From: an uncultured delta proteobacterium
GTDB taxonomy: Bacteria > Desulfobacterota > BSN033 > UBA1163
Direction of reading: 5' to 3'
Length of the DNA: 64,000 nucleotides
Assembly: GCA_963820625.1 (NCBI GenBank)
Contig: CAWGAV010000005.1
Coordinates: 64,083-128,082 of the forward strand
Under the pieces are notes generated by a model that had not been told where the DNA came from, made no database searches, and was given only the letters and a program-made list of their open reading frames with translations. Made by a program: the position numbers and the translations under genes. Positions 13,341 to 40,027 of the stretch are shown one piece after another. Every line of letters begins with the position of its first letter. Within the stretch, counting starts at the first letter, position 1.

Positions 13341-13535
13341 TGTCATTCCTGCGAAAGCAGGAATCCAGTATTTTCATAGGCGTTCTGGACTCCCGCTTTC
13401 GCGGGAGTGACAGATAGTGGTTATTGAGCACGTAATAGGGTTCGCAAAATCAGCATGGTTTTATATTTGGTTGCGGCTATGCTGCGCTGTGTAATCGGGC
13501 CCTAATTCCTGCCTGCCGGTAGGCGGGAGTGTAAT
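13341..13535. repeat. REPIN-like hairpin doublet plus a further hairpin
   Basis: GTCATTCCTGCGAAAGCAGGAATCCAG, 16 nt, then CTGGACTCCCGCTTTCGCGGGAGTGAC (13342-13411). A CTGCCTGCCGGTAGGCGGG hairpin lies near 13510. Confidence 0.8.
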
Positions 13536-14953: not shown

Positions 14954-14995
14954 AACCTTCGGTTGCTAGAGGTTGGAGGCTCAAATAATTTTTAC

Positions 14996-15234
14996 TTTAT
15001 TAAGAACGCATCTGAAAACCCCGTCCTGTACCTGCCTGCCGGTAGGCAGGGCCGGGGATGAAAGATGTGTCTGCCAAAGGCAGAAAAGCCTTAATCAGAT
15101 GCTGAAACAAGTTCAGCATGACAACAGGGTTTTCCTCTTGTGTTTTGTCATCCCGAACTTGATTCGGGATCTGGTTTTCTGGTTTAGAGAATTTGGGTTT
15201 TAAAGCCCCGCCCTGTGGGCGGGGTTCTTTACTT
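14996..15234 (+). repeat. composite hairpin repeat, copy A (about 240 bp)
   Basis: Shares ordered modules with the copies at 19097, 21986 and 35355: CCCCGTCC..GGCAGG..GGACGGGG, TCTGCCAAAGGCAGA, GCTGAAACAAGTTCAGC, GTCATCCCGAA..., GCCCCGCCCTGTGGGCGGGG. Confidence 0.85.
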
Positions 15235-15268
15235 AGGCATCTATCCTCTTTCCTCTAACTGTATAAGG

Positions 15269-16129: not shown

Positions 16130-16170
16130 TCAATTAGCAATTAGACACTTATTTACAATGATCTAACAGT

Positions 16171-16265
16171 TGTCTTTCCCGCAAAAGCGGGAATCCAGAT
16201 TGAAGAGACTGGATTCCGGATCAAGTCCGGAATGACAAAACGTGTGAAGTCATTCCTGAGACAGT
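16171..16265. repeat. REPIN-like hairpin doublet
   Basis: GTCTTTCCCGCAAAAGCGGGAATCCAG, 10 nt, then CTGGATTCCGGATCAAGTCCGGAATGAC. Confidence 0.8.
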
Positions 16266-18818: not shown

Positions 18819-19015
18819 TGTCACCCTGGACTCGTTTCAGGGTCTCCTTTTTTGAGATTCTGAAACAAGTTCAGAATGACGGCATTTGTGGTCGCTACAT
18901 TTCCCATATCTTCCCCCTTCTCATTCCTGCCCCGGTTTTCACCGGGCTAAACTCCAGCAGGAATCCAGATTTCTTATAAAACCTATATCTGGATTCCCGT
19001 TTGCACGGGAATGAT
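18819..19015. repeat. cluster of REP-like hairpins including a nested REPIN-like doublet
   Basis: Hairpins CACCCTGGACTCGTTTCAGGGT and CTGAAACAAGTTCAG. Then TCATTCCTGC[CCCGGTTTTCACCGGG...]AGCAGGAATCCAG, 20 nt, then CTGGATTCCCGTTTGCACGGGAATGA. Confidence 0.8.
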
Positions 19016-19096
19016 AATCTTAAAGTACTGTTATAAATTAAATTTTCATCATTCGTGCCTGCAGACTTGCGTGGGTGATCAACTAATCATTTAAAA

Positions 19097-19378
19097 TTTA
19101 TTAAGAACGCGTCTGAAAACCCCGTCCTGTGCCTGCCTGCCGGTAGGCAGGGACGGGGATGAAATATGTGTCTGCCAAAGGCAGAAAAGCCTTAATCAGA
19201 TGCTAAAACAAGCCTGATCTCCATCAGGCCAAGGTTAAGCATGACAACAGGGTTTTCCTCTTGTGTCTTGTCATCCCGAACCAGGTCCTGAACTTGTTTC
19301 AGGATCTAACGATTTCGGGATCTTGGTTTAGAGAATTTGGGTTTTAAAGCCCCGCCCTGTGGGCGGGGTTCTTTACTT
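19097..19378 (+). repeat. composite hairpin repeat, copy B (about 280 bp)
   Basis: Colinear with copy A apart from module indels. It is the reverse complement of the copies at 21986 and 35355. Confidence 0.85.
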
Positions 19379-19452
19379 GTCAGTGGGTGCTTATTACCCC
19401 TATCCCGGTGCCCTCTTTACAAAGGATAGATATATTGATAATGAATTAAGAA

Positions 19453-21960: not shown

Positions 21961-21985
21961 TAAATGGGGTCTCCAATTATTACTT

Positions 21986-22277
21986 AGTAAATTACCCCGC
22001 CCACAGGGCGGGGCTTTAAAACCTAAATTCTCTAAACCCAAAACCGAGATCCCGAAATCCTTAGATCCTGAATTAAGTTCAGGACCTGGTTCGGGATGAC
22101 AAAAGAAGAAGGCCAATCCCCTGTTGTCATGCTTAACCTTGTGCTGAACTTGATTCAGTATCGTTTCAGCATCTGATCAGGTTTTTTCTGCCTTTAGCAG
22201 ACACACCTTTCATCCCCGTCCCTGCCTACCGGCAGGCAGGCACAGGACGGGGTTTTCAGGTGCGATTTCTAATAAAA
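21986..22277 (-). repeat. composite hairpin repeat, copy C (292 bp), at the left boundary of the accessory island
   Basis: Same length as copy D (35355-35646) and differs from it at only 6 positions by eye. Same orientation as D. Confidence 0.9.
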
Positions 22278-24069: not shown

Positions 24070-24124
24070 GCCCAACGTTAAAAGCTCAGCGGTGGCTGTA
24101 AGCCATCCGCTGGATTTGTTAGGT
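24070..24124 (-). other. attC-like site 2
   Basis: On the minus strand: R'' ACCTAAC and R' GTTGGGC, both fitting RYYYAAC/GTTRRRY. Core is CAGCGG-TGGCTgtaAGCCA-T-CCGCTGGA. Confidence 0.65.
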
Positions 24125-25455: not shown

Positions 25456-25513
25456 CCCGAACGGTCAAAATCAGCGGGGCGTGTAACGCATCCGCTGGAT
25501 TGTTTTGTTATAT
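25456..25513 (-). other. attC-like site 4
   Basis: On the minus strand: R'' ATATAAC, containing the TAA stop of the upstream ORF, and R' GTTCGGG. Core is AAATCAGCGG..CCGCTG[G]ATT with a bulged G. Confidence 0.55.
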
Positions 25514-27009: not shown

Positions 27010-27067
27010 CTCGAACGAATTAAATCAGCGGTGGCTGTAAGCCATCCGCTGGAGTGATTTGTTGTGC
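27010..27067 (-). other. attC-like site 6
   Basis: On the minus strand: R'' GCACAAC and R' GTTCGAG. The core CAGCGGTGGCTGTAAGCCATCCGCTGGA is identical to that of site 2. Confidence 0.6.
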
Positions 27068-28674: not shown

Positions 28675-28732
28675 GTCTAACATCAGAAATCAGCGGCGGC
28701 TATCAGCCATCCGCTGGAGTGTCTTGTTCGGT
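28675..28732 (-). other. attC-like site 9
   Basis: On the minus strand: R'' ACCGAAC and R' GTTAGAC. Core is CAGCGGCGGCTATCAGCCATCCGCTGGA. Confidence 0.6.
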
Positions 28733-28735
28733 GAC

Positions 28736-29668
28736 TTATCTATTCCAAAGTTGCTCAATCAACAGCACTTCTCTGGGCCTCAGTTCCCGAATGGTGCTTT
28801 TTGAAATGCTGGTGATACCCAGCCTCTTTGCTTCTTTTCTGAATTTGGCCCAAGTGTGGTATTTACAGTCATCCGGCTCCGCAACGTAGAACCTTGTCCA
28901 ATGATGCACGTCTTGCCGGAGGACAATAGGACATGGTTCAAAGACTGAGACCCGCTTTCCAGAAAGAGATTCCCATATCTGGATTATAATATCTCCCTCA
29001 CGAGCATGACTTCGAAACTTTGACTTGCCCGTCCATCGAATCCACGACACGTCGGTTGACTTATCTGAGACGATTTGTCTGGCCTTATTCTCCGCCTTTT
29101 GGACAAAAGGCTGTTCCTTAGGGTACTTGTTTTCTTCCAGTTGCTTGACTGAGACAATCCAAACTTTGTTGACGAATTTGGTTGTCGGTGGAGGTTTGCG
29201 TCGCCTGCGTCTTGGTCGAGCATTTACTTTTATCTTCGATATCCGGGTTAAGAAGCCCCGGTCGATCCGTCGAGAGATCTCGCGCAGCCCATAAAGAAAA
29301 GCTGTGGCTTGCGCAACCAGTTGCTTTCTGTCCGTGAGAATGGCCAATTCGGTTAGTTCTTCTGCGGATGAAATAGATAGGTTGCATGATCCGACAAGTG
29401 CCGTCTTGCCGAAAAGCACGACCTTTGCGTGAAGGTCAGACATCGAGTATAAATCCACACCTTTCCGCATCAGAGATCGCAATACTTTGGCGGAGGTTTC
29501 TGCCAATTTGATCGCCCGATCCGAGGCGTCGCATATGAGGACATCACCTTTTCGGAAATTGAGGCGTGCCGTGCTCGATACGTACGCCACGGCTGCGAAA
29601 CGTCGAGGAGCTTTGTTGACATTAGAGGCAATCTGCTTCCAGATGTTCCCTGTAAGGATTGTATCCAT
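28736..29668 (-). CDS. PLD-family (single HKD) nuclease-like protein with an uncharacterised C-terminal domain
   Basis: ...DLHAKVVLFGKTALVGSCNLS... carries the HxK...GSxN signature. A basic linker ARPRRRRRKPPP follows, then about 170 aa of unknown domain. The start is the ATG at 29668. Confidence 0.65.
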   Translation of the reverse strand: MDTILTGNIWKQIASNVNKAPRRFAAVAYVSSTARLNFRKGDVLICDASDRAIKLAETSAKVLRSLMRKGVDLYSMSDLHAKVVLFGKTALVGSCNLSISSAEELTELAILTDRKQLVAQATAFLYGLREISRRIDRGFLTRISKIKVNARPRRRRRKPPPTTKFVNKVWIVSVKQLEENKYPKEQPFVQKAENKARQIVSDKSTDVSWIRWTGKSKFRSHAREGDIIIQIWESLSGKRVSVFEPCPIVLRQDVHHWTRFYVAEPDDCKYHTWAKFRKEAKRLGITSISKSTIRELRPREVLLIEQLWNR

Positions 29669-29677
29669 TCTTTTCTC

Positions 29678-29729
29678 ACCGAACTGTCCGAAATCAGCGG
29701 CGACGTTTATGCTGCTCGCTGGAGAATCT
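29678..29729 (-). other. attC-like site 10, apparently truncated on its R'' side by the RAYT unit
   Basis: On the minus strand: ...CCAGCGAGCAGCataaacGTCGCCGCTG... then R' GTTCGGT. No ..AAC box. The 27-bp inverted repeat starts at 29730. Confidence 0.4.
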
Positions 29730-29756
29730 GGGGTCAAATCTTTATTCTTGACTTTG
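29730..29756. repeat. left arm of the 27-bp inverted repeat (contains the hairpin GTCAA-N10-TTGAC)
   Basis: Read directly from the sequence. Overlaps the last codons and stop of the transposase gene. Confidence 0.9.
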
Positions 29757-30743
29757 CTGCAATTGTTTCTTCATCCTCTCAATTCTTGCCGCCAGTTTCT
29801 GGTCTTTGTCCAGCAGTGCCCAAAGCCTCTTCCTCATTACACTCACCGCGCTATAATCAATACCCATCAATTCTCCAATCTCCCTCTGGTTCATTCCCCC
29901 ATAACGATACAGCATCTCCATCAAAACTCCTCGTGCAACACCTTTGTATCCCTTTTTCAACAACTCCCCCCTTTTCACCCCAAACACATCTCCAATTAAC
30001 CGTATGATCCGCTGCGGTTCCACCTGGGCCAGAATCTTCTTAACCGCCGGAAGTTCTCTCAACTCAACAGCAGACCGGATATATTGTCCTCTAATCTTTT
30101 CTATAAATTCATTTGCCCCCACAATCCCATGCCCTGTCCCTCTCTCCAGAGGATTCTCTATCTTCCCCGACAACCCTTCCATCACAAAATCCTCATACTT
30201 CTTTCTCCCCTTTGCCGTATCCCCTCCAAAATAAGCCAAAACCTCCTTCACTTGAAGAAAGCCCCTCTTCCCAAGCTGCAAAATATACCCACCATAACTG
30301 CTCCAACGATAATTCCTCAGATACTTCCTTTTCTCATCCAGCGTCATTCCGGACCTAATCCTCACTCTCATGGGATTCAGGTGAATATACCTGGAAATCT
30401 CCCGCAGATAATTATCCGCATCCACCAGGAACGACTTGTAACGTCCCTGGTAAAGATGCCCTGTCCGATCGTGCTTCCAATTATGATACGAGGTATAGGA
30501 AATGTTGAAATGCCGCATAAATTCCTGCAAGTTCGCCAATGGTGTTTTGACCAGTAGATGAAAGTGATTTGACATCAACACATAAGCCAGAATCTCTGTC
30601 TGATAGATGTCACCGGATCGCTCCAGAAGATCAACAAAAGCTGACCGATCGGAATCATTTAAAAAGATTTCTTGGCGTGCATTACCTCGGCAGGTTACGT
30701 GATAGTAGGCATTTTCAAATTGGATTCGGAGTGGCCGTGCCAT
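29742..30743 (-). CDS. IS200/IS605-like Y1 (HUH) transposase, REP-associated tyrosine transposase (RAYT)-like, with a C-terminal DnaA-C-like HTH
   Basis: MARPLRIQFENAYYHVTCRGN..., HUH motif SNHFHLLV, then GHLYQGRYKSFLV...RYIHLNPMR with the catalytic Tyr region. C-terminal ...MNQREIGELMGIDYSAVS... The start is the ATG at 30743. Confidence 0.85.
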   Translation of the reverse strand: MARPLRIQFENAYYHVTCRGNARQEIFLNDSDRSAFVDLLERSGDIYQTEILAYVLMSNHFHLLVKTPLANLQEFMRHFNISYTSYHNWKHDRTGHLYQGRYKSFLVDADNYLREISRYIHLNPMRVRIRSGMTLDEKRKYLRNYRWSSYGGYILQLGKRGFLQVKEVLAYFGGDTAKGRKKYEDFVMEGLSGKIENPLERGTGHGIVGANEFIEKIRGQYIRSAVELRELPAVKKILAQVEPQRIIRLIGDVFGVKRGELLKKGYKGVARGVLMEMLYRYGGMNQREIGELMGIDYSAVSVMRKRLWALLDKDQKLAARIERMKKQLQQSQE

Positions 30744-30771
30744 TAACAGGATTTCTACCAAATTCCAAAGC

Positions 30772-30798
30772 CAAAGTCAAGAATAAAGATTTGACCCC
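30772..30798. repeat. right arm of the 27-bp inverted repeat
   Basis: CAAAGTCAAGAATAAAGATTTGACCCC, 29 nt upstream of the transposase ATG. Confidence 0.9.
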
Positions 30799-30827
30799 AA
30801 ATCGTCATTACAAGGTTTGATATAGAT

Positions 30828-31136
30828 TTGCCCCTTGAGTATCAGGTCACAAATTCTCCGTATGTCCGAGGAGCACTGGTTGTCAATGCCAGTGAATCAG
30901 GCCTTCTTGTCCATTCCATCAAAGACATGCCTATCGGTACGAAATTAAATATTGCGGTGATGTTCCCTGCAGGATTCGAGTTGGCCAATTTTGAAGTATT
31001 TGCCGAGATTGTTTGGAAAGATATCCATTGGGGGGAAAATCGGGAAGGGTACCAATTTGGATTAAAATTCGTCCGCATATTGGAGGAAGACCATCGGAAA
31101 CTGAAGCAACTTCTCGATGAACAGCATGAAACATAA
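30828..31136 (+). pseudogene. PilZ-domain protein, probably 5'-truncated
   Basis: Carries the (D/N)xSxxG motif NASESG and the C-terminal PilZ barrel. The RxxxR motif is absent, there is no ATG (TTG only), and the frame opens inside the inverted-repeat arm at 30795. Confidence 0.55.
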
Positions 31137-31199: not shown

Positions 31200-33060
31200 A
31201 CAGACAGTGTCAGATTAACTCTTGACTAATGAGTAAACCTACTACTGTTTATTCTAACTTTTCTTCTACAGTTGCGTTGGAGTAGTGTTTTGTAAGTTCC
31301 TGTAAACACTGATATTGTTCTTTGAAGAAATGGAAAATGGATGAAAATGTGGTGCCACAGAATATACTGAATACGCTTGACATATGCCTTCATATTGAAT
31401 ATTATTGGGGTGTCCTTAAATGGAGGCCCCATGTTTGCAAGAATCAAGAAATCGGGTCAACATCAGTACCTTCAAATCGTGGAGAATCACCGAGAGGGTC
31501 CAAAGACTATCCAGCGTGTGATCGCAACGATTGGCCGAATGGATCATCTGGAGGCCAAAGGGGATATTGAAAATATCATTCGATCTCTCTCACGGTTTTC
31601 AGAAAAGGTACTTTTGATTTTGTCCGGTAAGAGTGAGGTCCATGCGGCTGCGAAAAAGATTGGTCCCTCGTTGATCTTCGAGAGACTCTGGAAAGAGCTG
31701 GGGATCGGGAAGATCATCCAAGGGCTTCTGGGTGGCAGGAGATTTGAGTTTGATGTGGAGAGAGCTATTTTTCTGACCGTTCTTCATCGGCTCTTTGCAT
31801 CGGGTTCGGACCGTTCCTGTGACAAGTGGCACCAGGATTATCAGATTGATGGAGTGGAGCCTTTGTCCTTGCATCACCTTTATCGGGCCATGGCCTTTCT
31901 GGGAGAGGAGATCGAAGACCAGAGGGAGAGGACTCCCTTTGCTCCCCGATGTACGAAAGATGTGATGGAAGAGGCGATGTTTCATGAACGGCGGGATCTG
32001 TTTACGGGTCTTGACTTGGTCTTCTTCGATACCACCTCGATCTACTTCGAGGGAGAAGGGGGAGCGAGCTTAGGTGAAAAAGGGCACAGCAAGGATCATC
32101 GTTCGGATTTAAACCAGATGGTGGTGGGTGCGGTTTTGGATGAGGATGGCAAGCCCATCTGCTGTGAGATGTGGCCGGGCAACACGGCAGACGTCAAGAC
32201 CTTGATTCCGGTGATTGATCGGATCAGGAATCGTTTCCATATAGGCCGGTTCTGCGTGGTGGCGGATCGTGGGATGATCAGTGATGAAACGATGAAGGAA
32301 CTGGATCAGAGGAAGATTTCCTATATCCTGGGTGCACGGATGAGGAGGGTCAAGGAGATCCGGGAAGAGGTTCTGTCTCGGGCGGGACGATATACGGAAG
32401 TCCATCCGGAGGGGCCCTCTTCGAAAGATCCGGCCCCACTCAAGGTCAAGGAAGTCTGGGTGGATGAGCATCGCTATATCGTATGTTTGAATGTGAAGCA
32501 GGCGCGCAAGGAGGTGTTGGATCGGCAGGTCATTGTCGAAGCCTTGCAGGAGCAGCTTAAAAAGAACCCCAAGGCTCTGATTGGTAACAAGGGCTATCGG
32601 AAGTATCTGAAGCTGGATCGAGATCATCTTCGTCTCGATCAAGAGAAGATCGATGGGGAGGAGAGGTTCGATGGGAAATGGGTTTTAAAGACCAATACCT
32701 CTTTGTCTCCGGAAGAGACGGCCCTCAAATACAAGGAACTCTGGCAAGTGGAGCAGGTTTTCAGAGAGGTCAAGTCCGTTCTGGAAACACGTCCCATCTT
32801 CCATAAGTGTGACGAGACCATCCGAGGTCATGTATTCTGCAGCTTTCTTGCCCTTGTATTGAGGAAAGAACTGGATCGACGTCTTGATCAGGCGGGCCAC
32901 TGTTTTGAATGGGCAGACATCAAACAAGATTTGAAATCGCTTCAGAAAATCGTCATAGAAGAACAGGGCAAGTCATTGGCTGTCCGTAGTGAATGTAAAG
33001 GGATCTGCGGTAAGGTCTTTCAATCTGATACTATTTAAGGCCTCCCCCTAAAGATGGTAA
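31200..33060 (+). mobile_element. IS1634-family (IS4 superfamily) insertion sequence; ends not resolved
   Basis: Defined by its transposase gene. No convincing terminal inverted repeats could be identified by eye, so the boundaries are approximate. Confidence 0.45.
31431..33038 (+). CDS. IS1634-family DDE transposase
   Basis: MFARIKKSGQHQYLQIVENHREGPKTIQRVIATIGR... is a typical IS1634 N-terminus. DDE region ...VFFDTTSIYFEGE..., ...VVADRGMIS... RBS GGAGG before the ATG at 31431. Confidence 0.9.
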   Translation: MFARIKKSGQHQYLQIVENHREGPKTIQRVIATIGRMDHLEAKGDIENIIRSLSRFSEKVLLILSGKSEVHAAAKKIGPSLIFERLWKELGIGKIIQGLLGGRRFEFDVERAIFLTVLHRLFASGSDRSCDKWHQDYQIDGVEPLSLHHLYRAMAFLGEEIEDQRERTPFAPRCTKDVMEEAMFHERRDLFTGLDLVFFDTTSIYFEGEGGASLGEKGHSKDHRSDLNQMVVGAVLDEDGKPICCEMWPGNTADVKTLIPVIDRIRNRFHIGRFCVVADRGMISDETMKELDQRKISYILGARMRRVKEIREEVLSRAGRYTEVHPEGPSSKDPAPLKVKEVWVDEHRYIVCLNVKQARKEVLDRQVIVEALQEQLKKNPKALIGNKGYRKYLKLDRDHLRLDQEKIDGEERFDGKWVLKTNTSLSPEETALKYKELWQVEQVFREVKSVLETRPIFHKCDETIRGHVFCSFLALVLRKELDRRLDQAGHCFEWADIKQDLKSLQKIVIEEQGKSLAVRSECKGICGKVFQSDTI

Positions 33061-33106
33061 TGTAGGTTTGCAACAAAACCATATCCCATCAAAAGGAGGA
33101 AGCCAT

Positions 33107-34150
33107 ATGAAATTTTACACCCAGCAACACAAATTTTATTGTGGAATCGACCTTCATACCAAAAAAATGTTCGTCTGCATCCTGGATGCCGGGGGCAACA
33201 TCCGGATTCACCAAAACATCAATACGGACCCGGAGACCTTTCTGAACATCATCACTCCGTTCCGGGAGGACATCGTGGTTGCCGTGGAGTGCATGTTCAC
33301 CTGGTACTGGATCGCTGATCTGTGCGTTGAACACCATATCCCGTTCGTCCTAGGTCATGCCCTCTACATGAAAGCTATTCACGGAGGAAAGGCCAAAAAC
33401 GACAAGATCGACTCCCATAAGATCGCCACTTTGCTCCGGGGAGGAATGCTCCCTCAAGCCTATGTCTATCCGGCCAGGATGCGCGCAACCCGAGATCTCC
33501 TCAGACGGAGAAATCACTTAATGAGAAAACGGGCTGAGCTCTTTGCTCATATCCAGAATACCCGAAGCCAGTATAACCTTCCCGATCCCCTGGGATGCAT
33601 TGCCAAACCCAAAAACCGTGAAGGCATCGCCCAACGCTTCGATGACCCTTCCGTCCAAAAGAGCATGGCTGTGGACTTGGAGATGATTGAAGCCTATGAC
33701 CATATCTTGACCCAGCTCGAACGTGATATCATTGCCTGTGCTAAAGAACACGATCTGCGATCCTATGCCCTGCTTCAAACCATTCCTGGGGTAGGCAGAA
33801 TCCTCGCCCTGGTCCTCCTCTACGAAATCGAATCCATCGAGCGCTTCCCCCAGGTCCAGGATTTCGTCTCCTACTGCCGTCTGATAAAGAGCATCAAAGA
33901 ATCAAACGGCAAAAAGTACGGATCAAGCGGTAAAAAGATCGGTAACGCTCATCTCAAGTGGGCCTTCTCCGAGGCAGCGGTCCTTTTCCTCAAGGGCAAC
34001 GAGCCTGGAAAAAAGTACCTCCAAAGGCTTGCCCATAAGCACGGCAAAGCCAAGGCCCTCTCTATCCTTGCCCACAAGCTGGGACGGGCCGTCTATTTCA
34101 TGCTCAAAAACAAGGAGGCTTTTAACCAAAAAAAGTTCCTCGGTCTCTAA
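33107..34150 (+). CDS. IS110-family (DEDD) transposase/recombinase
   Basis: MKFYTQQHKFYCGIDLHTKKMFVCILD...VAVECMFTWYW...KNDKIDSHKIA... with C-terminal ...IPGVGRILALVLLYEI... RBS AAGGAGG. Confidence 0.9.
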   Translation: MKFYTQQHKFYCGIDLHTKKMFVCILDAGGNIRIHQNINTDPETFLNIITPFREDIVVAVECMFTWYWIADLCVEHHIPFVLGHALYMKAIHGGKAKNDKIDSHKIATLLRGGMLPQAYVYPARMRATRDLLRRRNHLMRKRAELFAHIQNTRSQYNLPDPLGCIAKPKNREGIAQRFDDPSVQKSMAVDLEMIEAYDHILTQLERDIIACAKEHDLRSYALLQTIPGVGRILALVLLYEIESIERFPQVQDFVSYCRLIKSIKESNGKKYGSSGKKIGNAHLKWAFSEAAVLFLKGNEPGKKYLQRLAHKHGKAKALSILAHKLGRAVYFMLKNKEAFNQKKFLGL

Positions 34151-35218: not shown

Positions 35219-35354
35219 CGTATGCCTCTTGAAACATAACGATTAATCTATCAAATTACCGCTTGTGGTAAAAAATAGCAGAACTGTTTAAAAAAAACAA
35301 TGAAAATTTCTTGAAAATAATAAATTTAGTTGACTTGGTTTCGCTTTTATGAAA

Positions 35355-35646
35355 AGTAAATTACCCCGCCCACAGGGCGGGGCTTTAAAACCTAAATTCT
35401 CTAAACCCAAAACCGAGATCCCGAAATCCTTAGATCCTGAACTTAATTCAGGACCTGGTTCGGGATGACAAAAGAAGAAGGCCAATCCCCTGTTGTCATG
35501 CTGAACCTTGTGCTGAACTTGATTCAGTATCATTTCAGCATCTGATCAGGTTTTCTCTGCCTTTAGCAGACACACCTTTCATCCCCGTCCCTGCCTACCG
35601 GCAGGCAGGCACAGGACGGGGTTTTCAGGTGCGATTTCTAATAAAA
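35355..35646 (-). repeat. composite hairpin repeat, copy D (292 bp), at the right boundary of the accessory island
   Basis: 6 mismatches against copy C over 292 nt by eye. Same orientation as C. Confidence 0.9.
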
Positions 35647-36808: not shown

Positions 36809-36880
36809 CTGTCACTCCCGTGAAAGCGGGAGTCCAGAAGGGTTTGGAAAGACTGGATTCCTGCTTCTGCAGGAATGACA
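36809..36880. repeat. REPIN-like hairpin doublet
   Basis: GTCACTCCCGTGAAAGCGGGAGTCCAG, 15 nt, then CTGGATTCCTGCTTCTGCAGGAATGAC. Confidence 0.8.
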
Positions 36881-39946: not shown

Positions 39947-40027
39947 CGTCATTCCTGCCCCGTTTTACAACGGGCTAAACTCCAGCAGGAATCCAGTTGC
40001 TCGATTCCCGTTATCACGGTAATGACA
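39947..40027. repeat. REPIN-like doublet with a nested hairpin (same subfamily as 18921-19015)
   Basis: TCATTCCTGC[CCCGTTTTACAACGGG...]AGCAGGAATCCAG, 5 nt, then CGATTCCCGTTATCACGGTAATGAC. Confidence 0.8.

Follow-up and report, generated by a model that had tools for sequence, protein, structure and literature searches.

The stretch of contig CAWGAV010000005.1 analysed here, 64,000 nucleotides (64 kb) from an uncultured delta proteobacterium and referred to below as the window, contains at 29722-30806 a unit of about 1,085 bp in which a RAYT-like transposase gene is enclosed by terminal inverted repeats (TIRs). The gene lies on the minus strand (29742-30743), with its ATG at 30743 and its stop codon at 29742-29744, and codes for a protein of 333 amino acids with the N-terminal sequence MARPLRI; the open reading frame (ORF) as listed starts at an upstream TTG and codes for 339 amino acids, while homologues begin at MARP. 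The two arms form a perfect inverted repeat (27/27 positions), with GGGGTCAAATCTTTATTCTTGACTTTG at 29730-29756 on the plus strand and its exact reverse complement at 30772-30798 on the minus strand, which grows to 31 nt (29726-29756 and 30772-30802, 97%) if one mismatch is allowed. The left arm spans the last four codons of the gene and the stop codon (QSQE and stop), and the same arm is found at the 3' end of homologous genes, while the right arm ends 28 nt short of the ATG. An original prediction, made from the sequence alone, had described the perfect 27-bp repeat and the overlap with the last codons and stop correctly, coordinates included, and had put the right arm 29 nt upstream of the ATG. 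With up to three mismatches allowed, the window holds just two copies of the 27-mer, i.e. the two arms, and a match is obtained in none of 100 dinucleotide-preserving shuffles of the window.

Outside the arms lie two short, degenerate extensions, GAGAATCT at 29722-29729 on the plus strand at the gene-3' end, with the consensus RRRGAWWT in 194 dereplicated TIRs, and GACGATTT on the minus strand (30799-30806) at the upstream end, the latter being common to another locus (L064/L115). A candidate promoter of the gene may be read on the minus strand at 30752-30780. Its -35 box would be TTGACT (30775-30780) within the TIR, separated by a spacer of 17 nt, with TGg as its last bases, from a -10 box TAGAAA (30752-30757), which ends 8 nt before the ATG. 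The TG-n-TAnAAA block is conserved across subfamilies whose inner sequences otherwise diverge. A promoter consensus scan did not call this candidate. No Rfam matches are obtained in the window.

The protein consists of an N-terminal Y1/HUH domain (residues ~11-125), a linker (~130-235) and a C-terminal helix-turn-helix (HTH) domain (~240-330). The Pfam family Y1_Tnp matches residues 11-122 with an E-value of 6.9e-14, and the motifs H60-F61-H62, G95-H96-L97-Y98-Q99-G100-R101-Y102-K103 and R118-Y119-x-H121-L122-N123-P124 are invariant among 36 homologues. The best NCBIfam model is REP_Tyr_transpos (NF047646), with a score of 66.5 bits that is under the cut-off of 80, and the IS200 model (NF033573) reaches 18.6 bits against a cut-off of 55. 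In the C-terminal part, the Pfam families HTH_28, HTH_23 and MarR give weak matches at residues 274-308, domain IV (positions 342-437) of the DnaA equivalog TIGR00362 aligns to residues 236-329, and precomputed annotations assign PF08299 to several homologues. The family is large, with 4,414 proteins at E <= 1e-5 in a word-indexed search, and 1,133 clusters at 50% identity match the protein at E <= 1e-30.

A search of the Protein Data Bank (PDB) with the single sequence gives nothing at E <= 1 and a profile search gives marginal HTH/DnaA matches only (8btg, 3pvp), so that a search by fold was necessary. The AlphaFold (AF2) model made from the 36 homologues has a mean predicted local distance difference test (pLDDT) score of 63.7, with values of 70-90 in the cores of both terminal domains and poor values in the linker. 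With Foldseek, 4er8, a complex of the E. coli RAYT with a REP hairpin, is its top PDB match (E 1e-4, TMt 0.57), and the IS608 and ISDra2 TnpA structures come next. The C-terminal 95 residues superpose on the DNA-binding domain of M. tuberculosis DnaA (3pvp) with a TMt of 0.85-0.86 and a root-mean-square deviation of 1.6-1.7 Å. The original prediction of a RAYT-like HUH/Y1 enzyme with IS200/IS605-TnpA/RAYT motifs and a DnaA-C-like HTH tail is thus borne out by motifs, family models and fold. The N-terminal part would thus be a nuclease-ligase for single-stranded DNA. The metal site is formed by H60 and H62 of the HUH domain, and the nucleophile is probably Y119 of the Y-x3-NP motif, which characterises class 2 (RAYT-like) Y1 proteins (PMC6006769) and whose tyrosine is marked as catalytic in the published RAYT/TIRYT alignment (PMC3733652, Additional file 5). 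Y102 of the GRY motif was considered as nucleophile and dropped in view of this alignment.

RAYT-like genes with long terminal inverted repeats instead of REPs were described by Di Nocera, De Gregorio and Rocco in 2013 (BMC Genomics 14:522; PMC3733652), who coined the names TIRYT for the protein and TIRtron for the unit. Many TIRs of TIRtrons start with GGGGWSAS, which is stated for some TIRYTs and not for all, and some TIRs constitute moderately abundant dispersed families with single, dimeric and grouped copies (PMC3733652). In the 2018 survey of Quentin, Siguier, Chandler and Fichant, TIRYTs are subclass 2.1 of TnpA_REP, to which RAYT Group 1 of Bertels et al. (2017) is mapped (PMC6006769). 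According to this survey, subclass 2.1 proteins are present in 14.9% of strains, no REP-like structures were found adjoining their genes, members of subgroup 2.1.2 carry C-terminal Bac_DnaA_C, HTH_23 or HTH_28 domains, and formal evidence of autonomous mobility is lacking (PMC6006769). In a literature search, the term TIRYT was found to be used in these two publications only.

When eleven sequences rebuilt from Additional file 5 of PMC3733652 were compared with the 333-residue protein by BLASTP, the named TIRYTs gave E-values of 2e-31 (sml1152), 1e-28 (sml4509), 3e-27 (aba2776), 5e-27 (gbm2474), 2e-26 (pca3049), 4e-24 (dau2153), 2e-22 (gsu2396) and 2e-19 (rba2408), and the classical RAYTs gave 2e-8 (P. 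putida ppf5083) and 0.14 (E. coli b0228). The TIR head, GGGGTCAA, agrees with GGGGWSAS at seven of eight positions; the eighth base is A instead of S (C/G), and this A is invariant across the subfamily of the window element. The motif GGGGWSAS as such is not enriched in the window. As the protein is closer to TIRYTs than to RAYTs, the unit is classed, on sequence comparison, as a TIRtron with a TIRYT protein, a kind already described and probably equal to subclass 2.1.2.

Like the published TIRtrons, the window unit has a RAYT-like Y1 gene between long terminal inverted repeats without GTAG REPs, a TIR head close to GGGGWSAS (7/8 positions) and one TIR over the 3' end of the gene, and its TIR is dispersed, as are the TIRs in some organisms of the published set. 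Unlike the eight named TIRYTs compared, which have 216-240 amino acids and in most cases a basic GRPRK-like tail, the window protein has 333 amino acids and a full DnaA-domain-IV-like fold, and its subfamily comes from uncultured Desulfobacterota-type metagenome-assembled genomes (MAGs), outside the coverage of PMC3733652. With subclass 2.1.2 it has in common a long class 2 protein with Y-x3-NP and a C-terminal Bac_DnaA_C/HTH_23/HTH_28 domain, a gene that no structured REP-like repeats adjoin, and a broad taxonomic spread. In contrast to the low copy number found in that survey (PMC6006769), near-identical units are found here in many contexts, together with deletion derivatives.

The RAYT/REPtron systems (E. 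coli TnpA_REP, 4er8; Nunvar 2010; Ton-Hoang 2012; Bertels and Rainey 2011) have the same catalytic-domain fold, and there too a short sequence with further copies dispersed between genes brackets the gene in inverted orientation. However, the window unit has neither a GTAG tag at its arms nor a stable palindrome, its protein is of double length with an extra HTH domain and stays below the cut-off of the REP_Tyr_transpos model, and, in MAGs and metagenomes as distinct from closed genomes, it is multi-copy and multi-context rather than single-copy at a stable locus. The name REPtron-like, used originally, is therefore replaced by TIRYT/TIRtron, in view of the missing GTAG-tagged REP and of a hairpin for which neither folding energy nor covariation gives support (see below). 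IS200/IS605 elements such as IS608 and ISDra2 share the HUH/Y1 fold and the lack of target-site duplication, but in place of terminal inverted repeats they carry subterminal hairpins, which differ from each other and lie on one strand, and their TnpA proteins comprise ~130-155 amino acids without an HTH domain, commonly with a tnpB partner.

Near-identical copies of the TIR-to-TIR unit (~1.07-1.09 kb, 90-100% protein identity) are found in at least nine unrelated sequence contexts, and four MAGs contain at least two copies each, a pattern at odds with a domesticated, single-copy RAYT. In the long-read MAG MFD02979.bin.2.8, two copies show 87.8% identity over 1,081 bp and their homology stops at the TIRs. 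The sole other contig with an identical protein among the matches listed (L153) shares just positions 29719-30803 with the window. The exact 27-mers, again among the matches listed, comprise 42 upstream-end and 14 downstream-end occurrences, for which the outside sequence is mostly different. No direct repeat or target-site duplication is present at the junctions of nine complete copies. Many homologues lie on contigs of 1.1-1.7 kb, i.e. of about the length of the element. Two internal-deletion derivatives retain both ends: in L091 (~180 bp) unit positions 8-79 are joined to 971-1079, and in L132 (~380 bp) positions 8-302 are joined to 1002-1078. In addition, truncated and nested copies occur (L085, L108/L135, L134, L150). 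Given the many contexts, the several copies per MAG and the deletion derivatives, the unit has the comparative profile of an insertion sequence with non-autonomous derivatives, and not that of a fixed domesticated gene.

The termini of the element lie a few nucleotides beyond the 27-mer. Across loci, the outer 5-8 nt pair with the interior subfamily, such that the variants GATAAAT, GGATCT, GTGATTT and ACGATTT are each associated with their own interior. As each variant keeps its own interior at different loci, the outer bases travel with the element, which gives a length of ~1,085 bp in the window. In the 194 dereplicated ends, the position directly outside the GGGG (-1) is T in 86%, and positions -8 to -5 are purine-rich. 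The likeness of the flanks to AAAGATTT amounts to 3.6/8, as compared with 2.05 for a flank control and 2.10 for random positions. A palindromic extension, with GGGGTC as the loop and a stem between positions -8 to -1 and TIR positions 7-14, was rejected as too degenerate for a stem.

A protein-based scan of GTDB yields 32 loci, all of them from uncultured Desulfobacterota-type MAGs (Syntrophorhabdus, Syntrophales, Desulfobacterales). Inverted arms of the form GGGGTCAAATCTTTAT(T/C)CTTGAC flank about 20 of the 25 complete genes in these loci, at protein identities of 52-78%, with the upstream arm of the homologues starting ~53-55 nt ahead of the start codon and the second arm overlapping the stop codon. 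It was originally proposed to check whether orthologues are flanked by the same repeat, and homologues down to 52% identity do carry the arms. The TIR core remains almost letter-perfect while protein identity drops to 52%, which points to an end far better conserved than the protein; TIR positions 1-16 served as the search pattern for the GTDB-arm set and for a set of 48 distinct TIRs, and invariance at these positions is partly built in.

The small hairpin GTCAA-N10-TTGAC that was originally noted in each arm is indeed present, but it is weak (-2 kcal/mol as single-stranded DNA). In its context it has a z-score of -0.56, with 51 of 200 shuffles folding equally well, and the bare 27-mer has a z-score of -2.4. 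None of the 48 distinct TIRs shows a compensatory change in the GTCAA/TTGAC stem pairs; the one variable stem position, C23, changes to A without its partner, and the "loop" is as invariant as the "stem". The hairpin was therefore rejected as a conserved structure, in respect of both folding energy and covariation. The lack of compensatory change in the stem, together with a loop as invariant as the stem, suggests that the end is read out as sequence and not as structure. An HTH protein that binds duplex DNA as a dimer would be a suitable reader of the dyad GTCAA-N10-TTGAC.

The exact 27-mer is present in at least 120 metagenome contigs. Among the matches listed, 78 of 136 exact 27-mers abut neither part of the gene, most of these having unique sequence on both sides, and such solo copies shun coding sequence, as 4 of 39 lie in open frames of at least 120 codons, compared with 51% of random positions on the same contigs. 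Tandem and grouped TIR copies also occur in the fetched loci. Copies of the 27-mer elsewhere, for which the original prediction had proposed a count, are thus numerous, mostly alone and intergenic. As to the repeat mobilised by the enzyme, which that prediction had left open, the enzyme's own dispersed 27-mer is the likely candidate, and not the ATTCC..GGAAT hairpins of the window.

Solo TIRs are accompanied by further motifs. In 16 of 120 dereplicated ends, the TIR is followed on its inner side, at a distance of 11-28 nt and in constant orientation, by another dispersed motif, TCATCCNTAAAAAAGTTGGCC, and TIR plus TCATCCNTAAAAAAGTTGGCC forms a 62-nt unit at at least eight different sites. It has 51 matches in the fetched loci and none in the window; examples inside solo TIRs are found at L052, L058, L065, L084, L088, L106, L125, L140 and L144, among others. 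Other repeats with a GGGGTCA head (for example GGGGTCAAAGCTACACTATACACTTT) adjoin solo 27-mers at L040/L152, L131, L126, L054, L069 and L128, and at L050, L056 and L098, a pattern suggestive of clustered ends of related elements; alongside are stretches of a 7-nt sequence repeated in tandem (GGTCTnT).

At least nine of 193 ends show a head-to-tail reiteration just outside a complete end. Short reiterations combine 4-12 nt of outer sequence with 0-8 nt from the start of GGGGTCAA (for example ggctatGGGGTCAAaggctatGGGGTCAAATC...), and longer ones comprise the whole end, or the end plus 56-155 nt. Reiterated termini are present at L033, L066, L134, L139, L145, L146, L005, L143, L125 and L085 and, in the GTDB loci, at L015 (2912/2949), L017 (2922/2947) and L024 (3936/3978). 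In L109, a second sample of the locus of L139, the reiteration is missing, i.e. it is polymorphic between two samples of one locus. A nick at the terminus, followed by short extension of the 3'-OH and resealing of the 5'-phosphotyrosyl strand, would produce tandem copies starting from the nick. The reiterations may be scars of such HUH nick-extend-reseal cycles or, as a plain alternative, of slippage at a stalled fork; since their left border varies, they do not fix the position of the nick.

Taken as a whole, these data argue with good confidence that a mobile element of the TIRYT/TIRtron kind, both intact and autonomous, occupies the segment 29722-30806. The same gene could be that of a stationary, host-kept nuclease of the domesticated RAYT type, which spreads or maintains the solo 27-mers and whose flanking pair are simply the nearest copies of the repeat. 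The RAYT fold and best family model agree with such a nuclease, as do the large number of solo 27-mers and their REP-like intergenic location, the seven GTDB loci in which further ends, solo or in tandem, are located less than 3 kb from the gene, and the low overall copy number of class 2 genes (PMC6006769). It is nevertheless unlikely, if conceivable for individual genomes: a stationary gene is at variance with near-identical TIR-to-TIR units in many unrelated contexts, with homology of within-MAG copies that is confined to these units, with nested, truncated and deleted copies and with the many homologues on contigs of about element length. Moreover, the TIRs keep fixed positions relative to the gene, one of them over the stop codon, in homologues of 52-100% identity, and this geometry agrees with element ends and not with neighbouring repeats.

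Considerably less probable still is that the arms are operator or promoter sites of an HTH regulator-nuclease, the gene being carried passively by neighbouring insertion sequences of the IS4 and IS110 types or as a cassette. The upstream arm does contain the -35-like TTGACT at the correct distance from the TGnTAGAAA box, and the unit is next to transposase genes of the IS4 and IS110 types and terminates an array of cassette-like genes. However, an operator role is not obvious for the second arm at the 3' end of the gene, other contigs give the unit different neighbours without IS4 or IS110, and it is at the arms that homology between copies stops and both arms that the deletion derivatives retain. 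That an ordinary IS200/IS605 TnpA gene became enclosed by a repeat of chance or local-duplication origin, for which the Pfam family name Y1_Tnp alone speaks, has a negligible probability (the original prediction had named an IS200/IS605 TnpA with tnpB and a chance local duplication as two separate cases that would overturn it), and a chance origin of the repeat is excluded, as no shuffle matches, the same arms flank homologues in unrelated MAGs, the 27-mer recurs in other contigs, the IS200 model stays far below its cut-off, and there is neither a tnpB neighbour nor an IS200-type TnpA.

Several points weigh against the mobile-element interpretation. Insertion is inferred from differing flanks and was not observed directly: exact-product look-ups of the neighbouring genes (PilZ, and PLD-like from M24) gave no empty site, and an all-versus-all comparison of the outer flanks of 153 loci gave same-locus duplicates only, with no filled/empty or full/solo pair. 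The window contains one copy of the unit and no solo 27-mer, which weighs on its presumed activity in this genome. The metagenome matches were chosen by exact 27-mer and MAG binning can mix genomes, while the bias of the search pattern at TIR positions 1-16 touches the conservation of the ends, for which one GTDB arm analysis was pattern-free. The AF2 model is mediocre, with pLDDT below 50 for residues 104-131, including the helix of Y119, and 195-239. Finally, the low copy number of class 2 genes counts here as well, and the TIRYT literature offers comparative data only and no experiment (PMC3733652, PMC6006769).

The individual steps of a possible mechanism are much less certain than the statement that the unit is a mobile element. 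The HTH domain may read the end as sequence, probably as duplex DNA, and the GTCAA-N10-TTGAC dyad may provide half-sites for a dimer. The bound HTH domain would position the HUH domain for a nick slightly beyond the GGGG, by a few nucleotides, with one strand cut at one end and the opposite strand at the other. The element could then move or copy itself by HUH phosphotyrosyl strand transfer through Y119, without duplication of the target. The enzyme may also mobilise single ends and copies with internal deletions in trans, which would explain the solo intergenic 27-mers. In addition, binding of the transposase at the upstream end would repress its own gene, as this end carries the -35 box (TTGACT, 30775-30780) of the candidate promoter.

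More tentatively, TIRYTs could follow a hybrid pathway that would be new among HUH transposons, in which duplex end recognition is combined with opposite-strand nicks and 3'-OH extension before resealing; this proposal is possible but rather doubtful. Its DnaA-domain-IV-like HTH domain would bind duplex ends, so that the enzyme need not wait for single-stranded DNA at a replication fork, and the HUH domain would nick opposite strands just beyond each end. The free 3'-OH would be extended and the phosphotyrosyl strand resealed thereafter, with the reiterated termini as scars. The enzyme would spread single 27-mers, as its minimal substrates, in trans, and a REP-like family derived from transposon ends would result.

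The surroundings of the TIRtron are rich in other repeats and mobile genes. To its left, a hairpin repeat of ~45 nt is present in five copies (24073-24124, 25458-25509, 27012-27063, 28677-28728 and 29694-29726), with the sequence AAATCAGCGG-nGGC-TGTAA-GCCnT-CCGCTGGAGTG.TTTGTT and an inner stem that covaries (GGC/GCC versus GCG/CGC). Each copy directly follows the 3' end of a gene on the minus strand. Seven genes, unrelated in function, make up the array (C39-like peptidase, shikimate-kinase-like, 4Fe-4S, diphthamide-synthase-like, unknown, CxxCxxCC and PLD-like nuclease). The arrangement could be taken for a cassette array whose hairpins are attC-like sites, or for REPs or terminators in series; an integron was considered and rejected, as no integrase was found in the window. 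The fifth hairpin abuts the TIRtron end (..CGCTGGAG followed directly by AATCT-GGGG), and the TIRtron of L064 lies at the same spot of a similar hairpin. The ORF of the PLD-like nuclease (28736-29737) begins at a TTG within the TIR (29737), and its first 23 codons, over the hairpin repeat, are probably non-coding. The likely start is M24 (MDTILTG), so that the element would lie upstream of this gene and leave it uninterrupted.

On its right side, the TIRtron is followed by a small PilZ gene (30828-31136) and then directly by two transposase genes, one of the IS4 type with a DDE domain (31377-33038; DDE_Tnp_1, E 4e-18) and one of the IS110 type (33068-34150; DEDD_Tnp_IS110 and Transposase_20). 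With three transposon types in 5 kb, this region is a hot spot for mobile DNA. The other hairpin repeat families that were originally reported in the window are confirmed and are distinct in sequence from the 27-mer. A composite intergenic repeat of ~290 nt (14984-15236, 19085-19382, 21983-22277 and 35350-35646; two direct and two inverted copies, 86-98% identity) contains several GC-rich hairpins, for example CCTGCCTGCCGGTAGGCAGG and GCCCCGCCCTGTGGGCGGGGT. A further family, TGTCATTCC(n)-loop-(n)GGAATCCAG, in which the inner stem varies, is present at 13341-13376, 16170-16240, 18921-19017, 36845-36880 and 39949-39996; these hairpins are the ATTCCY-N8-RGGAAT REPs of the original prediction, are unrelated to the 27-mer and have no associated RAYT gene in the window.

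What is new here is comparative evidence for the TIR-to-TIR mobility of units of this kind and for the seeding of a REP-like family of solo ends by them. For the annotation of the window, the segment at 29.7-30.8 kb is a mobile element within a mobile-DNA hot spot. TIRYTs, or subclass 2.1, are among the largest groups of RAYT-like genes, and the subfamily described here is an unusually clean comparative case, comprising an intact unit with perfect ends, near-identical copies, deletion derivatives and many solo ends. It would provide a good model for how a Y1 HUH enzyme with a putative duplex-binding domain moves DNA, and could reveal whether REP-like repeat families originate from transposon ends.

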